Of a DNA stretch of 64,000 nt, positions 13,578-63,883 are shown piece by piece. The stretch comes from Amoebidium appalachense (Eukaryota; Protista; Ichthyosporea): positions 12,435,651 through 12,499,650 of the forward strand of contig CAVNZM010000003.1 in the NCBI GenBank assembly GCA_963693365.1, given 5' to 3'. The translations under genes and the position numbers were made by a program. Below the pieces are notes generated by a model. The model was not told where the DNA came from, ran no database searches, and saw only the letters and a program-made list of their open reading frames with translations. Each line of letters opens with the position of its first letter. Position 1 is the stretch's first letter.

Positions 13578-13700
13578 CTGTTTGTGTTAGTGTGTGTGTG
13601 GGATGCTGGGTCACTTGAGACACTATACAAGAGGATGGGCACTATATCGGAGAAGATATTAAGGCCTATTACTAAGAGCATCGTGATGGTGGGTGTGGGT

Positions 13701-16377: not shown

Positions 16378-17120
16378 TTCCCCGCCCGTAACATAACTCG
16401 GACTATCGGTTTGGCTTTTTTCAAGCCCAAAGCAATGGGTGATACCATATTTCCGGCTGACATCCGGGGGCATAGCTTTCCGTTCGAAGACGTTAAAGTT
16501 CCGCCCTAGTAAGCGTGTTACTACCCTGCGGCGTGGGTCAAATCTTATATTTTCCCCTTTGATTTCGAATTCTGCGGCCTTCGGTACTTAAGTCTTTTCA
16601 GCTGGTGTAGTATGTTAGCCAGGGAAGTATCGACGTAGGTAGCCATGAGGGAGCTTCCCAGAAGCCCCGTCTCCTGAGTTCCTATCTATATTTTTCTTGC
16701 TTCTGCTTACTGCTGCAACTTTAACCCCCGGCCTTTCCCACTGCCCTTGCCTGCATAAGCAACCCTGCTCGTCTCTGATCAAGACGGGTGACCTACCCAT
16801 GTTCAAGTGAAACAGTCTCTGAGTTGGGTTTCGTTAACGAGGTGAATAGGTCGAAACTCGGGTACTGTGGATGACGTGGGCCCCCCCTGAGGATGGGCTC
16901 TGCTTATTATGCATACTCTTTATGTATGGCTTGCATTCAGCATCATGTTATCCGTTTGTTCTTGTGTACTTCGTACTTTATGACGCATTCAAACCCCCCG
17001 TCGCCCCTTCCCCCCCACCCCCCCCCCAACACACGCACAAAAAAAATTACCTGACACCCATCTCCCCCCCCCCCTCTCCCGCACCACACACACACACATA
17101 CATAAACACATGCACACGCA

Positions 17121-20797: not shown

Positions 20798-20798
<1 letters not shown>

Positions 20799-21195
20799 AT
20801 GTATGCGTTAGAGGGTTGGAAATGTGGAGGAGACACCAAAGAGCAACAACAAAAGCGTCACAAAGGTTGGAAATCCAAAATCCAACAATTTAAGCGTGCA
20901 GGCAGATGACACTTGAACAGAGCCCATCATCAGGGGGGTTCCTATGCCTCCACAAAAGCATGGGTTTCGACTCTTTAACCTCTCGCACGTAGTTCCCAAC
21001 CCATACTTTGTTTCAACAGCAATAGGCGAGTCCACCCGTCTTGGCCAAAGACGAGCAGGGTTGTTCAAGGAGCAGCAATCTAAGAACACAGAGTGTACGA
21101 AATCTGCAAGCAGACAAAAAAACAAAAAAAGCAAGCAGAGAGATAGAGCATAAGCCCGGCTTCTACAAAGCTCCCCGACTCCTTAGCCTATAGAG
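20798..21195 (-). mobile_element. Subfamily B element
   Basis: Repeated at 22826-22980 and 54698-55065. It shares aaccctgctcgtct..aagacgggt, gtcgaaac and ccctgatgatgggctctg with A and C, and has G-runs at both ends. Confidence 0.85.
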
Positions 21196-22345
21196 TAGGG
21201 GAGGGAGGGGAGGGGGGGGGGGAGGGAGGGGGAGAGAGAGGGGGAAGGGGGGGGGGGGAGGGGGGGGGGGGGGGGGGGACATGGAGACAGAGAAAACAGG
21301 GGGGGAACGAACCTGGCAACTATTGCTTTATGAGAGGGTTACCCCACGCGGGGGGGGGGGGGGGGGGGGATGGGGGCTAGCTAGGGGAGGAGGAAGAGCA
21401 CAAGCCCATCCTTTGCATTGCTGTCCATCAGAGATGTAAGAGTTATGTATTTGTTAGCACACCAGGTGCCAATGCACACTACACGCTCGTGTAGAGTCCG
21501 TACACTCGCAAATAACCCGGCCCTTAGATCACTTGGGCCCATGCCACCATTATGACATGGAAACTACAGACGCACTAGGCATGCACCTGTTTTCTACACA
21601 TAACATCGAGCCAGTCAATGCAGGAATTTGGGGGGGGGGGGGGGGGGGGGGGGGAGGGGGGGGGGGGTATTTAGTGGGGCTAGCAAGTATCACGATTTGT
21701 GATAGGTCATGCAGTTTCTGTGGCTGCATGCTTGAATAAACATACCGGAGTAATGAAATGAGCAACGAGAGGGAATATAACAAGGATAAGGAATAAGCGG
21801 AAAAGAACAACAAGAGTGGAATAAGCGGGTCCCAATGGGAAACAATACCTTTTACACCAAAAATTATACACATCGACATATCAACATACATATAGGTAAC
21901 TAGCATGCACACAGTACACACATTGTCTAAGAGGTGAAACCCACCACCCTCCAACCCAACACTAGAATGCGTTTAGTTTAGTTTCCAAACAAAACGACTC
22001 ACACACATCAAACACACACACACACACAAGCCCACACGTACGTGTACACCTTGCATGGCAAAATCCGCGCACAAGCACACACACACACGCACAAGCAAAC
22101 ACATACACAAGCAAACACACACACACACACACGCACACAAGCACACACACAGTGTCCACACACACGCACACACACACACATACACAAGCACAAGCAAACA
22201 CATACACAAGCACACACACTACACTCACGTACACAGGTGCACAATCAAATATAGCCGCCTACAAGCCCAAGCATCCGCACACTACACACAGGTACGCATG
22301 TGCACACACACAAGCACACACATACACGTGCATTACATTAACCCA

Positions 22346-22817: not shown

Positions 22818-23124
22818 GGGGGGGGATGTATGCCTTAGAGAGTTGGAAATATGGAGAAGACGCCAAAGAGCAAAAGCAAAAACGTCACAAAAATGAGAAG
22901 CGTGCAGGCAGAAGACACTTGAACAGAGCTCATCATCAGGGGGGTTCCTATGCCTCCACAAAAGCATGGGTTTCGACTCTGGAGGGAGGGAGGGGGGACA
23001 TGCACACTAGGGGGAAGGGGGCGCACCAAGGGAGGTTGCAGCAAACAAGACAGCAAAAGAGCCCGGGCGGGGGGGAGGCGGTAAGCATCCCAAGGGGGCA
23101 ATGCATTAAGGGGAGATGCTCTCC

Positions 23125-23180
<56 letters not shown>

Positions 23181-24161
23181 AACACCTGTTGGCGGGGGAG
23201 AGGGGGGGGGTGGGGGGGGGGGGCGGGGTTTGAATGTGTCATAAAGTACGAAGTACACATGAACAACGGATAACACGATGCAGAGTGCAAACCATACATA
23301 GTGCAAACCATACTTAAAGATTATGCATAATAAGCAGAGCCCATCCTCAAGGAGGGCCTACGTCATCCACAGTACCCGAGTTTCGACCCATTCACCTCGT
23401 CAACGAAACCCAACTCAGATACTGAGCCGGGGGGGGGGGGGGGGGGGGGGGGTTATATGCGTAACAGTTGGGGATAAATACGTGTAGGGAACATGCTCTT
23501 CAGAGGGAAGGGTGTGTGTGTGTGTGTGTGTGGGGGGGGTGGGGGGGGGGGGGGGGGGGGGGGGTAAGAGAGGATACACACCTGTGGGAAGAGAGCGCAG
23601 CAGAGGGGGGTAGAGAAAACGAGGCAGATGCCAGCAAGACCCACGGTGATTGGTGCAGCCAGCCAGGGGACCTTCTGGAGCAGCACACCCTTGGACAGCT
23701 TATTCATCACAATGGGCGGGATCACCATGCCTGGCGTGGCCATGAGGATACGCGAGGGAATCACCTGTGCGCGTGTGTACGTGTGTACGTGTGGGTGAGT
23801 GTGAGTGTGTGTGTTGGGGGGGGGGGGGGGGGGGGGGGGGTGGAGGCTGGAAGGTAAGGAGGTGTGTGTGTGCGTGTGTGTGTGTGTGTGTTGTGGTGGT
23901 TGTGGGGAAGGGGGGGGGGGGGGGGGGGGGGGGGGGGGAATAGGGTTAGTGGTTGCAGTGTGAGGGTTTGTTTATTTGCGTCTCGTGTATTGTGACCAAA
24001 AAGGGTGGAAACAGGAGAAGAATACATTACCAGAGTAAGAAGTGCACATTCCATGCCGGGCACACAATGCAGTTTGAAAGCTACAAACAAGGAAAAGAAC
24101 CGCAGAAATAACACAAACCCGAAATGAATGTGCATATGTATGCTATGCAATGTACACTCCC

Positions 24162-31798: not shown

Positions 31799-43621
<11,823 letters not shown>

Positions 43622-48144: not shown

Positions 48145-48962
48145 CCGGCACTGCTGTTATTGTATCCCCTCTTGAGCTCCTACGGACCAATGCCCAATCG
48201 TTGCAGGGCAAAGGAGGACTCGGCATGTACAGTGGTATGTGCCCCCCGCCCCCCGCCCCCCTCTCCCTGCACTCTATCCCCCCCCCCCCCCTCCCCCCCC
48301 CCCCCCCCCCCCCTCCCCCCCGCCTCCCCCAGACATCTTTACTTCCATGCAACCGGGCATGGTTGCTCTGTGTCGTGCATCTGTAAGCACATACACATTT
48401 TTCGCTGCACTGCATTAGTTTGCACACACATCTTCACCGTTTTGCTCACCTTGCTTGCATAAGCAACCCTGCTCGTCTTTGATCAAGACGGGGTGACCCA
48501 CCCAAGTTCAGTTGATGCCGCTGTCTAAGTTGGAGCGTCGTATATACGCGGGCTAAGGGGTCGAAACTCAGACGAAATTGATGACTTGGGCCCTCCCTGA
48601 GGATGGGCTCTGCTTATGACGCATACTGTGCGCATGGCTGATGTTGCATACTTGAATGTTTGCCTTTGCATGTGTCCTGCACCATGCTTCTCATCGTGTA
48701 TGCGTACTTCGTACTGTGTTCCGCATTCAACCCCCCCCCCCCCTCCCCCCCCCCCCCCCCGGGGGTGGGGGGAGGAAGCAAGAAAGAAAGAGAAGTCAAA
48801 GAAAAAGAAAGAAGTGCTACAGTTATATCCCCTCCCCCCTCCCCCTCCTCCCCTTCCCCCGCTCAGTCTCACTCACTCATCTCACTCTCGCTGCACTCAT
48901 ACTGATGCAAACACACGCTCTCATATGTATATGCAATACACACATGCGCGCACGCACGCACG

Positions 48963-49264: not shown

Positions 49265-50683
49265 GGGGGAGGGGGGGGGGGGGGGGGGGGGGGGGGCAAA
49301 GGAATGACATAAAGAAACAGAACAAGAAAGGAAGACGACCTGTTTTTTCTTTTTTGGTTCCGTTTTTTCTTTTTTGGTTCTGATTTTTCTGACCTTTTTT
49401 GGTTCTTTTATATTATTATTTTTTTTTTTTTAAAAAAAAAATCTGTTTTTCCGTCACCGATTAACTGATTGACCAATCACAGAGCTGTTCATGCGCATGT
49501 ACGGCATGGTGCAAGCCAATGGGATCGCTGCGTTGTGGCGAGGCCTGGTGCCCACATTGTGGAGGGACATTCCCTTTTCGGGTAAGTGCTACTTTCCTTA
49601 TTTGGCAACCAACATGTAAAAACACTATTATCTTTCTTCTGTTTCCTTCCATTTGAACCTTCCGCCCCCCCCCCCCCCCCCTTCTTGCTTCTGCTTACTG
49701 CTGCAACTTTAACCCCCGGCCTTTCCCACTGCCCTTGCCTGCATAAGCAACCCTGCTCGTCTCTGATCAAGACGGGTGACCTACTCATGTTCAAGTGAAA
49801 CAGTATCTGAGTTGGGTTTCGTTAACGAGGGGAATAGGTCGAAACTCGGGTACTGTGGATGACGTGGGCCCCCCCTGAGGATGGGCTCTGCTTATTATGC
49901 ATACTCTTTATGTATGGCTTGCATTCTGCATCGTGTTATCCGTTTGTTCTTGTGTACTTCGTACTTTTTGACGCATTCAAAACCCCCCCCCCCCCCCCCC
50001 CCCCCCCTCTCCCTCCCCCCCTCCACCTCTTACTCACCACATTTTTCTTGGACGTTTTTCAAGAAAAGGGGGTGGGGCGGGGGAGGGGGGAAGGGGGGGA
50101 GGGGAGAGGATGGGGAAGGGAGGGGAAGGGAGGGGAAGGGAGGGTTGTGACCTATTGTGTTATGTCATGTCTCCTCCATTATTCCAACCTCCATGCATAT
50201 ACATCCCCCCTCCACACACACACACACACACACTCACACACACACACCATCCGAGGGCGTTCCTCCTCCCTCTATTCTTCATGAATCAACTTGATTTCTT
50301 TGGGTGTATGGTATTCTCGGTACCTGTTTTGAAAACAGAAAACCTGCCTTTGATTGGGGGACATGTTGGCTGGTTGTACAAAAGGGAATAGGCAAGGTGG
50401 TGGTGATGGTGGGTGGGTGGGTGGGTGTTGGGAGGGGGGAAGTAGATGAGAAGGGGAAAAGGGGGGGGGGGGGGGGAGTGAGGGGGAAGGTGGTGTGGTA
50501 TAGGATAGGTGCTAATGCGATGGGCCACCCAGCCATCTACTGGACTGCCTACGAGGCGGGAAAGAGGTCACTGCACCGCATAAGAGGCCCAGTGGGGAGG
50601 GAAAGGTGGGTGTCAACCTCTCCTTCCCCTCCCCCCCCCCCCCCCTCTCTCTCTCTCTCTCTCCCCCCCCCCCCCCCCCCCCG

Positions 50684-54697: not shown

Positions 54698-54699
<2 letters not shown>

Positions 54700-55065
54700 T
54701 ATACGTATGCGTTAGAGGGTTGGAATTATGGATGAGACAACAAAGAGCAACAACAAAAACGCCACAAAAAATGAGAAGTGTTCAGGCAGAAGATACTTGA
54801 ACAGAGCCCATCATCAGGGGGGTTCCTATGCCTCCACAAAAACTCTTTAACCTCTCGCACGTGGTTCCCAACCCATACTTTGTTTCAACAGCAATAGGCG
54901 AGTCCACCCGTCTTGGCCAAAGACGAGCAGGGTTGTTCAAGGAGCAGCAATCTAAGAACACAGAGTCTACAAAATCTGTAAGCAGACAAAAACAACGAAA
55001 GCATGCAGAGATTTAGAGCATAAGTCGGGCTTCTACAAAGCTCCCCGATTCCGTAACCTATAGAG
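54698..55065 (-). mobile_element. Subfamily B element with a small deletion removing the GAAA motif
   Basis: Collinear with 20798-21195 but lacks gcatgggtttcg at ~54840. Confidence 0.85.
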
Positions 55066-55679
55066 AAGGGGAGGGAGGGGGAGGGGAAGGTGGGGAGAGG
55101 GGGCGGGGGGAGAAGGGGGGGAGACGGGGAAGGGGGGGGGGGGGGGGGGGGGGGGGGGCAGCGAGTAGAAGCATCGAGTCTTCATTGATTTGCACGTATG
55201 GTACACCGTATATTCACCATGTTGCTTACAGTAATGGCTTAATAAATAAACCGAGCAACACACCATGTATAATACTTGTGCACCACAGCAATTTTTTTGC
55301 TTGCCAATGCATATCTTTACAAATACATCATAATTTCCGTCTGTATGAGACTCTTGCCAGGTTCAGAACATCCTTAGGCTAGACGAGTAATCGAACCAAC
55401 ATACAACCTACACCACTTATGTGAGTGATACACTTTCCTGATCCCCACCCACCCACCCACCCACACAATCTATATACACGCAACAAATCCCGACAAATGC
55501 CCAATTAAACTACACAAAACTACCACAAACACACGCCCAGGCCCTTTCATACCATTTCACCGAAACTAAGAAACCCCCCCTCTATCGCGCGTCAATCAAA
55601 GGTTTTCAGCATATAGCAAGCCCTTGAACAAGATACATTGTTAATCACACTTACGAATAAACATACATTCCATACACAT

Positions 55680-58308: not shown

Positions 58309-58687
58309 GAATGCGGAGCACGGTACAAAGTACGCATACACGGGGGGAGGGAGGGAGGGAGGGAGGGAGGGAAGGGAGGGAGGGAGGGAGGGAGGGAGGG
58401 AGGGAGGGAGGGAGGGAGGGAGGGAGGGAGGGAGGGAGGGAGGATGGGTGTGTGTGTGAGTGCGCGCGCGCGCGTTTGTGTGTATGTACAACTGAATGTG
58501 AGGGGCAGAGTGGCATGTTTTGTTTTTTTTTTAACACGAAGTTTACATTCATGAAGGGCAGGACAATGCAGATTTTGCAGAAAAAGAGCACAGAGTCCAT
58601 GAAGCTAGCTAGTAGAGCCCATCCTTAGGGAGCGGCGCACGGGCAGGTGGGGGCGGGGCATGTGGGGGTGGGCGGGCGGGCGGGCGG

Positions 58688-58725
<38 letters not shown>

Positions 58726-59652
58726 GGGGGGGGGGGGGGGGGGGGGGGGGATGTATACCCTCGTGGCCGGTAAGAACTCTCAGACATTGGCCCGTAGCGG
58801 CGCTCCAAACCCTCAGTGTCATGTCTACGGAGCCACTGACTATGAAGGTCTCCGTGGCAGCAAGGCAGTACACCTATATTTGGATCACGGGGCTATAATT
58901 AGATGCAAGGCAGTACACCTCTATTTGGATCACGGGGCTATAATTAGATGCAAGGCAGTACACCTATATTTGGATCACGGGGCTATAATTAGATGCAAGG
59001 CAGTACACCTCTATTTGGATCACGGGGCTATAATTAGATGCAAGGCAGTACACCTATATTTGGATAGTACGGATATTAATCAACAGGTGCAACGTGTGTA
59101 CATCCATATTTAGATGATGGGGCTATAATTAGATGCATGGTGTGTACATCCATATTTAGATCGTGTGGCTGTAGTTAGATGCAACGTGTGTACATCCATA
59201 TTTAGATCGTGTGGCTGTAGTTAGATGCAACGTGTGTACTCATGTATTTAGATCACAGAGCTATCAATAAATGCAAGGTGTACGCCTATATTTAGACCAT
59301 GCGGCTATAAATAGATGCAATATTTGTAAACCCATATTTAGATCAAAGCACTATGTTTAGATGCCGCGTGGGGGTGGGTAAAAAAAGAAAAGGAGGAAAG
59401 GAGACTGCCGAGGGATATATATATATAGATGGGCAAAGGTGGGGATGATGCTGAGGATGAATGGCTGAGGCTGTGATGTGCCTGCGTCACTGTAGGCATG
59501 CCGGCAGGAAGTGCATCTATATATAGAGCAGAGGGCTATTATTAAGTGGAGGGGGGAGGGGGGGGGGGGGGTTTAGTGCATAGGGGAGCAGCGCTAAAAG
59601 GGGGGAAAGAGGTGTTCTGTGTGCCCTAATTGGAACGGATGGAAACGAGAGG

Positions 59653-60878: not shown

Positions 60879-60912
<34 letters not shown>

Positions 60913-61031
60913 ACACACACACACAAACACACCCACCCGCCCACCTCAGATAGTTGAGCGCATGCGCAGAGCACTTTGGGTCATCGACAGATCCCCCCCC
61001 CCCACACACACACACACCCCTTCCCCCCCTC

Positions 61032-61084
<53 letters not shown>

Positions 61085-61337
61085 ACAGGCACACACCAGC
61101 CTCCCCCTCCCCCCTCCCCCGCCACACCCCCCATCTCCCCCCTCGGCCTCCCCTCCCCTCCCCCCCCCCACACACAAACCCACCCCCCACCACACACACC
61201 TCACATAGTTAAGCACATACACAAAGCACTTTGGGTCATCGACAGCCCCCCCCCCCCCCCCCCCCCCCCCCATCTCCAAAAACACACACACACACATGCA
61301 GACACACCAGCCTTCCCCCATCCAACCCCTCCCCCCC

Positions 61338-61368
<31 letters not shown>

Positions 61369-61720
61369 ACGCACCTTCTCCCCCCACCCCACCCCCTCCC
61401 CCAAACACCCACCCACCCACACCCACCCACACGCACCCACACACACACACACACACGCACCTTCTTGCCCCACGCCTCCCCTCCCCAAAACACCCACCCA
61501 CACACACACCCGCCCACCCACACACACACCTCAGATAATTGAGCACATGCGCAAAGTACTTGGGGTCTCTGTCAATGAAGTACCGTCCCTCCTTGTCCGT
61601 AGCCAACCTATGCCTCCCACTGAACATCGCTGCTAGCATGCTGTCGGGTAGTCTGCACAGCGTAGACCGCGTGGTAGTGATGGGCTGGCCACCCACGTTA
61701 AGAGTGATGATGTCACAGGC
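56041..61720 (-). CDS. KCTD-type BTB/POZ domain + WD40 repeat protein; spliced, 5' end not resolved
   Basis: Exons: 61720-61530 (ITLNVGG...TTRSTL...DSMLAAMFSG...FIDRDPKYFAHVLNYLR), 60165-59991, 58873-58759 (SGSVDMTLRVW), 57915-57644 (SGSYDCTTRRWD), 57151-56972 and 56301-56041 (GHTNGI...DGKVRVW). The start exon lies further upstream and was not identified. Confidence 0.88.
58860..59365 (-). repeat. 45-bp tandem repeat spanning a splice acceptor of the BTB-WD40 gene, decaying distally
   Basis: The unit caaggcagtacacct(a/c)tatttggatcacggggctataattagatg repeats from 58861 to ~59065, followed by degenerate copies. Confidence 0.9.
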
Positions 61721-62057
61721 CTGAAAAAGTGAGAAAAGAAGCACGGTTATTTTTTATGTTTTTGTTTGAAAGAAGTGTTTGTTGAAATTTAAGAGGAGGG
61801 ACGAGGAGAAGAGGGGTGGGCAGGATAGGATGTGGTACACGGCAGGCAGTGCAATTCCACGGATGGCGGAAAAGGTGACACAGATGTGAAAAAAAGGACT
61901 CACATAAATGGTATGCTACAGAAACAACCAACTTTCGGGCAGAAAGGTGCCCATGTCATCCACGGTATCTTTTTCCGACCCGTTCATTGCAACACAAACC
62001 TCCACTCACATGCCCCTTCATTTGAACATGGGAGCCCCAGGGGGGGGGGGGGGGGGG

Positions 62058-62862
62058 TTTGAATGCGTCAAAAAGTACGAAGTACACAAGAACAAACGGA
62101 TAACACGATGCAGAATGCAAGCCATACATAAAGAGTATGCATAATAAGCAGAGCCCATCCTCAGGGGGGGCCCACGTCATCCACAGTACCCGAGTTTCGA
62201 CCTATTCCCCTCGTTAACGAAACCCAACTCAGATACTGTTTCACTTGAACATGAGTAGGTCACCCGTCTTGATCAGAGACGAGCAGGGTTGCTTATGCAG
62301 GCAAGGGCAGTGGGAAAGGCCGGGGGTTAAAGTTGCAGCAGTAAGCAGAAGCAAGAAAAATATAGATAGGAACTCAGGAGACGGGGCTTCTAGGAAGCTC
62401 CCCCGTCGATACCTAAGTCGATACTTCCCTGGCTAACATACTACACCAGCTGAAAAGAATTAAGTCCCGAAGGCCACAGAATTCGTAATCAGAGGGGAAA
62501 ATATGAGATTTGACCCACGCCGCAGGGTAGTAACACGCTTACTAGGGCGGAACTTTATTGTCTTCGAACGGAAAGCTATGCCCCCGGATGTCAGCCGGAA
62601 ATATGGTATCACCCATTGCTTTGGGCTTGAAAAAAGCCAAACCGATAGTCCGAGTTATGTTACGCCGGCGGGTAACATGCCGCATGGGTTCCAAGGGAGC
62701 TGTCGCCAACAGAGCGGTGTGTGCATGCGTGCGCGTAACGCAATGTGTGAAGTGTGTCTATAGCTATGAAAGGGGGTATGCAGAAGTGGACAGATGAAGT
62801 GTGTGGAGAGAAAAACAGTAAGAAGAAAAGTAGACACCGGTATGTGCAACCCCGCACAACAT
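62058..62862 (-). mobile_element. Full-length non-autonomous poly-C-associated element, subfamily A (tandem copy 1)
   Basis: Near-identical to 62881-63684, and its 3' portion matches the copies at 16381, 41513 and 49681. G-runs flank both sides on the + strand. No long ORF. Confidence 0.9.
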
Positions 62863-62880
62863 GGGGGGGGGGGGGGGGGG

Positions 62881-63684
62881 TTGAATGCGCCAAAAAGTAC
62901 GAAGTACACAAGAACAAACAGATAACACGATGCAGAATGCAAGCCATACATAAAGAGTATGCATAATAAGCAGAGCCCATCCTCAGGGGGGGCCCACGTC
63001 ATCCACAGTACCCGAGTTTCGACCTATTCACCTCGTTAACGAAACCCAACTCAGATACTGTTTCACTTGAACATGGGTAGGTCACCCGTCTTGATCAGAG
63101 ACGAGCAGGGTTGCTTATGCAGGCAAGGGCAGTGGGAAAGGCCGGGGGTTAAAGTTGCAGGAGTAAGCAGAAGCAAGAAAAATATAGATAGGAACTCAGG
63201 AGACGGGGCTTCTAGGGAGCTCCCCCGTCGCTACCTAGGTCGATACTTCCCTGGCTAACATACTACACCAACTGAAAAGAATTAAGTCCCGAAGGCCGCA
63301 GAATTCGCAATCAGAGGGGAAAATATTAGCTTTGACCCACGCCGCAGGGTAGTAACACGCTTACTAGGGGGGGACTTTATCGTCTTCGAACGGAAAGCTA
63401 TGCCCCCGGATGTCAGCCGGAAATATGGTATCACCCATTGCTTTGGGCTTAAAAAAAGCCAAATCGATAGTCCGAGTTATGTTACGCCGGCGGGTAACAT
63501 GCCGCATGGGTTCCAAGGGAGCTGTCGCCAACAGACCGGTGTGTGCATGCGTGCGCGTAACGCAATGTGTGAAGTGTGTCTATAACTATGAAAGGGGGTA
63601 TGCAGAAGTGGACAGATGAAGTGTGTGGAGAGAAAAACAGTAAGAAGAAAAGTAGACACCGGTGTGTGCAACCCCGCACAACAT
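62881..63684 (-). mobile_element. Full-length non-autonomous poly-C-associated element, subfamily A (tandem copy 2)
   Basis: Head-to-tail repeat of 62058-62862, separated from it by an 18-nt G run. Both copies end at the same point (...gcaaccccgcacaacat on +). Confidence 0.9.
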
Positions 63685-63771
63685 ACACACACACACACAC
63701 ACACACATAAATAAGCGAGGATTACAGGTAATCAACCAGAACAACAAATGACAAGCAAAACAACCGGCGCC

Positions 63772-63883
<112 letters not shown>

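Follow-up and report, generated by a model that had tools for sequence, protein, structure and literature searches.

The 64,000-bp stretch of the Amoebidium appalachense genome analyzed here (contig CAVNZM010000003.1, positions 12,435,651 to 12,499,650; hereinafter, the window) is intron-rich eukaryotic DNA, with exons of MEK-like kinase, sideroflexin, M20 peptidase, mitochondrial carrier, WD40 and BTB genes. One exon of the kinase gene is 100% identical to a protein in EukProt; the records that follow carry the labels Ihof (Ichthyophonus, 79%) and CFRG (Creolimax, 76%), with animal proteins lower, at about 69-75%, which by this single exon points to an ichthyosporean host. Close to its right end, two copies, A and B, of a non-coding unit of about 805 bp are arranged head to tail on the reverse strand (Table 1), and each contains a predicted hammerhead ribozyme with an altered order of strands. 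As proposed in the initial annotation, the two copies share the 5' start and the 3' end and are separated by a run of 18 G (C18 in the orientation of the unit). They are 97.4% identical, with 21 substitutions, 14 of these being transitions, and no internal gaps. The unit encompasses no long open reading frame (ORF), i.e., none above 99 aa from stop to stop, and those of its frames that were scanned have no matches in Pfam.

The core elements of the predicted ribozyme follow each other in the order X strand, GUU site, GAAA and CUGAGGA (CUGAnGA across the family), which we denote X-S-G-C. From 5' to 3', the model comprises the closing helix, a hairpin, the X strand of stem II, the helix that ties stem I to stem II (I-II helix), a kink-turn, stem III and the cut, followed by stem I, a linker hairpin, the stem II partner, GAAA, stem III, the I-II helix, stem I, CUGAnGA, a U and the closing helix. 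The 5' strand of stem II, which includes G10.1, is thus the upstream X strand, and the core is interrupted after A9 by the hairpin and closing helix. The I-II helix and stem III are connected by the kink-turn: in copies A to D and K, a bulge of 3 nt precedes G.A, A.G and A.G, whereas copy J has G.A, A.G and U.U, and this pattern matches the kink-turn consensus. The core motifs CUGA(G/U)GA, GAAA and GUU are intact in six of the seven parsed copies, with GAAA missing in copy L; in the decayed copy I, pairs are missing from most helices. The two cuts placed 822 nt apart in the initial annotation coincide with the N17 positions of this model, and the predicted cut is located 168 nt from the 3' end of the unit. 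The same annotation assumed a hammerhead like those of Penelope elements and retrozymes (type I/III); what is found instead is a rearranged, four-strand form that corresponds to none of the canonical type I, II or III circular permutations. At Rfam gathering thresholds, there are no matches in the window, and the five weak matches, all irrelevant, include no hammerhead; HDV-like, pistol and twister ribozymes were also dropped by eye. We consider it quite probable that this ribozyme cleaves itself.

Judging from the model, this is a hammerhead-type fold that is closest to type SGC but breaks the block rule of that type. Type-SGC hammerheads (HRIMA-1 and variants) have the order site, GAAA and CUGAnGA, without an X strand; all 583 sequences come from metatranscriptomes, and CUGAnGA is assumed to remain unsplit from its stem II strand, with six permutations allowed (Eckert et al., 2023, PMC10085705). 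The ribozyme described here shares with type SGC the S-G-C block order, the pseudoknotted stems I and II and the helix tying them together. It differs in that the G10.1 strand lies 5' of the site, that the closing helix and hairpin split the core outside the six permutations, that the kink-turn is present and that the sequence is chromosomal DNA of a eukaryote. Under the X-strand model, the stem II strand does not follow CUGAnGA within 2 nt as in type SGC, although a plain SGC fold can still be drawn. The literature searched, with subscription papers outside its coverage, contains no description of an X-S-G-C form; hammerhead variants with extra helices or other permutations are mentioned by citation only in one paper (PMC13725137).

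By sequence comparison, seven predicted helices covary across three subfamilies, and the X-strand model outperforms the plain one. Within each of the copies A, J and K, stem II pairs at 5 of 5 positions, the closing helix at 7 of 7 and stem I at 3 of 3, all Watson-Crick; when strands are swapped across subfamilies, pairs are lost in the X-strand model, whereas pairing in the plain SGC stem II is unchanged. On the unedited MAFFT alignment, the X-strand model pairs 89.1% of 384 cells with 17 double changes, neither value being reached by any of 500 shuffles, and slid registers of the model yield 35-50% pairing. The plain model pairs 87.7% with 9 double changes, values that are reached by 3 and 15 of 500 shuffles, respectively. 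A loose descriptor of the fold has five matches in the window and none in 60 resampled windows. The strict descriptor, which includes the hairpin and closing helix, also has five matches, namely, copies A, B, C, D and K, all members of the family, whereas J fails owing to a mismatch in stem III; it matches none of 144 foreign loci preselected by motif (0 and 16 from viral contigs, 7 from metagenome contigs, which look bacterial, and at least 121 from genome contigs) and none of 3000 shuffles in which the core letters were kept.

The 805-nt unit is an abundant, dispersed non-coding repeat and likely a non-autonomous retroelement. A covariance model built from 12 copies has 14 matches in the window, the 12 recovered by construction and two new ones, and nhmmer adds a family fragment at 58609-58632. 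The copies have a common 3' end and are truncated on the 5' side. A fixed 3' end combined with one-sided truncation is the mark of target-primed reverse transcription, so reverse transcription is favored over an origin from a DNA transposon or a Helitron; moreover, direct reading of the unit ends reveals neither terminal inverted repeats nor 5' TC/3' CTRR. The 20 bases flanking the copies contain at least 14 C on the 3' side in 12 of 13 copies and on the 5' side in 11 of 13, against a background of 6.6% of all 20-mers. An internal C7 run of the unit (62164-62170) is a truncation hot spot (copies H and O; poly-G loose ends in run contigs), which is consistent with 5' joining via C-run microhomology.

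Two further groups of copies in the window differ from the 805-nt unit. Copies K and L are 84.5% identical and, given their common 5' limit, probably represent full-length members of a distinct family of about 400 nt with the same ribozyme. Copies F and G (23229-23428 and 36767-36934) have a common 5' start with four additional letters; their core has U in place of C3, and they lack the X strand. They could be a short subfamily restricted to the plain SGC fold.

The stretch is present in 20 of the 24 listed sequencing runs. Summed contig depth, which is not a copy number, is 38.5 on the flank in run X1 and 6.4 in X3, but peaks at 1.56 million and 0.81 million, respectively, in the 3' part of the unit, about four orders of magnitude above the flank, and falls 5- to 15-fold, to 0.31 million and 0.05 million, close to the 5' end; X8 contigs display the same slope.

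Table 1. The tandem pair, its predicted ribozymes and related copies in the window (-, reverse strand; +, forward strand).
Feature	Position	Strand	Remarks
Copy A, full-length unit, 804 nt	62881-63684	-	Sequence comparison; at least 12 letters rare in the family
Copy B, full-length unit, 805 nt	62058-62862	-	Near the family majority
C18, tail of A and 5' flank of B	62863-62880	-	G18 on the forward strand
Second C18, behind B	62040-62057	-	Same length as the upstream run; resembles a target duplication
(GT)12 upstream of A	63685-63708	-	Same repeat as the loose end at the unit 5' limit in runs X9 and X19
Ribozyme region of a decayed third copy (P), immediately behind the C18 of B	61912-62034	-	nhmmer E 5e-5, cmsearch E 0.0055; absent from the covariance-model training alignment
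Predicted 822-nt monomer between the two cuts	62226-63047	-	Would comprise the 3' part of A, C18 and the 5' part of B
Predicted X-S-G-C hammerhead of A	62966-63118	-	Cut 63048/63047; G12 63020; C3 62986; G10.1 63083
Predicted X-S-G-C hammerhead of B	62144-62296	-	Cut 62226/62225
B closing helix	62296-62290/62150-62144 and 62288-62286/62156-62154	-	
B hairpin	62283-62263	-	
B stem II	62261-62257/62203-62199	-	
B I-II helix	62255-62249/62177-62171	-	
B kink-turn bulge	62245-62243	-	
B stem III	62239-62227/62195-62183	-	
B stem I	62225-62223/62167-62165	-	
B CUGAGGA	62164-62158	-	
Copy C	16378-16993	+	618 nt, truncated at the 5' end; ribozyme intact; located within a MEK-like gene intron
Copy D	49682-49981	+	5'-truncated, 300 nt; intact ribozyme
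Copy J	48333-48730	+	Second diverged subfamily; all core letters present
Copy K	20798-21196	-	Diverged subfamily of about 400 nt; intact ribozyme with CUGAUGA
Copy L	54699-55066		Sister of K
Copy N	22826-22979		Sister of K

The sequences of A and B bear on the origin of the tandem. With A as the reference, 12 positions carry another letter at approximately full depth in all four runs, and none of these 12 letters of A appears as a variant of at least 5% at the matching position of B in X1 or X3; B has one such rare letter (62559) and is identical to copy D over 300 nt and to copy E over 188 nt. Because of the rare letters of A and the identity of B to D and E, we consider A to be old or rare and B to be young, so that, by this comparison, A and B are not coeval. 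This difference in age makes re-insertion into the C tail a more likely origin of the tandem than a single multimeric insertion. In the simplest account, the young B likely inserted into the C18 tail of the older A, ahead of the decayed third copy, although template switching between two RNAs may also have produced the tandem. Another adjacent pair in the window, at 26545-26665/26432-26537, has the same old-then-young order.

Close parallels to the unit are found in the Naiad and Chlamys groups of Penelope-like elements. Canonical hammerheads were not detected in Naiad and most Chlamys elements, in which half cores lie 35-50 nt apart (Craig et al., 2021, PMC8557442). Chlamys families have (C)n/(CA)n targets and non-autonomous head-to-tail members, including MRC1, and the 3' ends of Chlamys-1 and -2_cRei consist of AA followed by a C run (PMC8557442). 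In the supplement to that paper, inspected by eye rather than by computation, an X-S-G-C fold is present near the 3' end of at least 10 of the 54 Naiad consensi (Bfor, Amil, Aacu, Anas, the one before Plae, which is 2_Movir by list order, Plae, EuTe, Obim, Ovul and an unnamed one near part 9). The inspected motif places are 1-7 and 15-62 of the 62 for CTGATGA, all 25 for CTGAGGA, all 23 for CTGACGA and 32 of 43 for CTGAAGA, with motifs broken across lines missed. Stems I to III, the I-II helix, the hairpin and the closing helix can all be recognized, and the fold is partial in the consensus before Adux; nematode and spider Naiads have cores that appear, by eye, in canonical order. In one consensus near part 17 and in the Darwinula Naiads, GAAA precedes CUGACGA and the inserts are longer; these may be further arrangements of the same ribozyme. 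The unit described here resembles both groups in its 5' truncation and the absence of a canonical hammerhead, Chlamys in its (C)n/(CA)n targets and AA-Cn 3' end, and Naiad in the rearranged hammerhead recognized by eye at the 3' end, i.e., it pairs a Naiad-type ribozyme with a Chlamys-type target. Head-to-tail tandems are present in the window, with copies of unequal age. The unit differs in that it has no ORF and that the host is an ichthyosporean, a lineage listed for neither group; the literature searched yielded no paper on Penelope elements in ichthyosporeans.

Taking these observations together, we propose, with a probability of about 0.6, that the unit is a non-coding, high-copy and likely non-autonomous element of the Naiad/Chlamys branch of Penelope-like elements with a predicted X-S-G-C self-cleaving hammerhead. 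The non-autonomous retroelement suggested in the initial annotation is thereby retained, along with the truncated 5' ends, microsatellite targets and presence of head-to-tail copies as Penelope-like traits, but its likening to retrozymes is not, given that the copies are mostly dispersed and single rather than arrayed. In non-LTR (long terminal repeat) retrozymes, repeats of 150-450 bp are arranged in tandem and carry hammerheads of type I (Cervera and de la Pena, 2020, PMC7229834; Li et al., 2026, 10.64898/2026.07.22.740005). The unit is like these in being non-coding, with one hammerhead per unit, two cuts that would yield a unit-length RNA and a probable dependence on Penelope-like elements; it is unlike them in its 822-bp period, its mostly dispersed and truncated copies and its four-strand ribozyme.

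Under the proposed mechanism, the RNA of the element would end in a C tract and anneal to a nicked genomic G run, which would prime target-primed reverse transcription by a reverse transcriptase supplied in trans, probably from a Penelope-like element with an N-terminal GIY-YIG endonuclease. The 5' truncations would also join at C runs. Each insertion would leave a new C run, so that later copies would land beside earlier ones. The ribozyme would cut read-through transcripts, and transcription of the tandem, followed by cleavage at both sites, would release the 822-nt monomer.

Several observations weigh against this proposal. In agreement with the initial annotation, no reverse transcriptase was found in the window: among the 150 scanned ORF stretches (of 302 complex stretches), there are no matches to reverse transcriptase or GIY-YIG families, and a motif search was negative as well. 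The Naiads are described from animals only (PMC8557442), and the fold was not seen in the inspected passages on Chlamydomonas Chlamys elements, despite the Chlamys-like target preference. The split of the core after A9 is at odds with the block rule of Eckert et al. (PMC10085705), stem I is limited to 3 bp, and the minimum free energy (MFE) fold recovers a part of the model only, with z = -1.0. The covariation comes from three related subfamilies, with a shuffle control that ignores relatedness; MAFFT placed K and L one column out of register, the anchored extraction for the swap test was fitted to the model, and that test took the plain I-II helix of K off register by one base, four pairs being possible by eye. 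The loose descriptor passed 5 of the 144 foreign loci. Finally, none of the 11 copies with a clear 5' end starts at the cut (8 start upstream and 3 at 25-65 nt downstream), and run contigs show no step in depth there. This suggests that the reverse transcriptase templates are uncut or re-ligated (circular) RNA, and would also fit weak or no cleavage.

Circular templates are central to an alternative that we regard as unlikely, namely, that the tandem is a functional master of the retrozyme or pseudo-LTR type, from which the 822-nt RNA is released, circularized and used as the template for new copies. Both ribozymes are intact, with 822 nt between their cuts, copies read through the cut, and priming at the C18 of the circle would yield exactly B, i.e., a full-length copy with C18 on both sides and the 5' limit of A. 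Furthermore, in runs X9 and X19, which are RNA by guess only and, being contigs, are silent on RNA ends, strand and level, the whole unit is covered and the flank is not. However, the loose ends at the 5' limit in these runs are (GT)n, as in A, rather than a C run, the two tandem copies are of different ages, single copies predominate, and retrozyme repeats are short and carry type I hammerheads. The monomer is not unusually structured either: a rod-like, viroid-type form is unsupported (circular MFE z = +1.35 against 30 shuffles).

It is quite unlikely that the same ribozyme and element are mobilized as a SINE-like (short interspersed element) passenger by a non-LTR retrotransposon with a restriction-like endonuclease (RLE), such as a HERO-like element. 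Some HERO families target microsatellites (PMC4640811), and 5' truncation with a common 3' end fits any element that moves by target-primed reverse transcription; the likeness is one of anatomy. Of the features typical of Penelope-like elements, neither an inverted 5'-truncated copy nor a tail of 30-40 bp was noticed in the inspected copy flanks, no formal search having been made. Conversely, by eye, each helix of the fold has a counterpart in Naiad tails, and (C)n targeting with AA-Cn ends is documented for Chlamys (PMC8557442), which argues for a Penelope-like partner.

The two remaining alternatives for the ribozyme itself are both highly unlikely. In the first, the active fold is of the plain SGC type, in which the strand 3' of CUGAnGA forms both the I-II helix and stem II, and the X pairing is inhibitory or alternative. 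This fold requires a 2-nt insertion after A9 only, and for copies F and G, which have no X strand, it is the sole possibility. It depends, however, on G-U pairs (2-4 Watson-Crick pairs of 5 in stem II), the 3' strand of stem II is invariant, and its covariation does not stand out from shuffles (69/500 and 36/500), in addition to the indifference to swaps described above. In the second, the fold is maintained as a binding element for reverse transcriptase or another protein, with little or no cleavage, as might be suggested by the lack of copies starting at the cut, the contig depth running through it, the split core and the short stem I; yet, in intact copies, CUGAnGA varies at the free N7 only, and among the variants listed in eight run comparisons, none falls on a core position.

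An assembly duplication is extremely unlikely: although no contig in the run-contig comparisons demonstrably bridges the A-C18-B junction, for which this assembly is the sole source (and 63672-63775 was skipped as a repeat in one comparison with A as the reference), several of the 21 substitutions are shared with copy C or segregate in independent runs, and the window contains two further adjacent old-young pairs.

Should the proposed reading be correct, its consequences would extend beyond this locus. Naiad and most Chlamys elements were reported without hammerheads, leaving open the role of the ribozyme in Penelope transposition (PMC8557442), and a covarying four-strand form in Naiad tails would overturn that report. 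Non-circularly permuted hammerheads, known almost only from environmental RNA, would gain a cellular host, and the assumption that CUGAnGA cannot part from stem II would break. The predicted fold is found here outside animals, in a unicellular relative of animals. We further consider it possible, albeit tentatively, that the rewired hammerhead is the missing ribozyme of Penelope-like elements with an N-terminal endonuclease, is of pre-animal origin and serves poly-C-primed, circle-templated amplification to a very high copy number in this host. The 153-nt domain is small enough for a single transcription assay, and the two-copy tandem is a natural substrate for monomer release and circularization.

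Several features of the surrounding DNA are of note. Nine copies (C, F, N, H, G, E, J, D and O) lie within exon-bracketed spans of five genes, all nine in sense orientation (p = 0.006; the copies are not independent and the gene spans are approximate), and runs of at least 10 nt on the sense strand number 79 for C and 60 for G. The tandem is on the same strand as the BTB exon below it, and the following intron contains three degenerate repeats of the 3' end of that exon (60900-61540); a similar duplicated exon end is present in the kinase gene (13601-13690). Two tandem arrays unrelated to the element are located at 58860-59364 and 39129-39933, with units of about 30/90 nt and about 117 nt, respectively.
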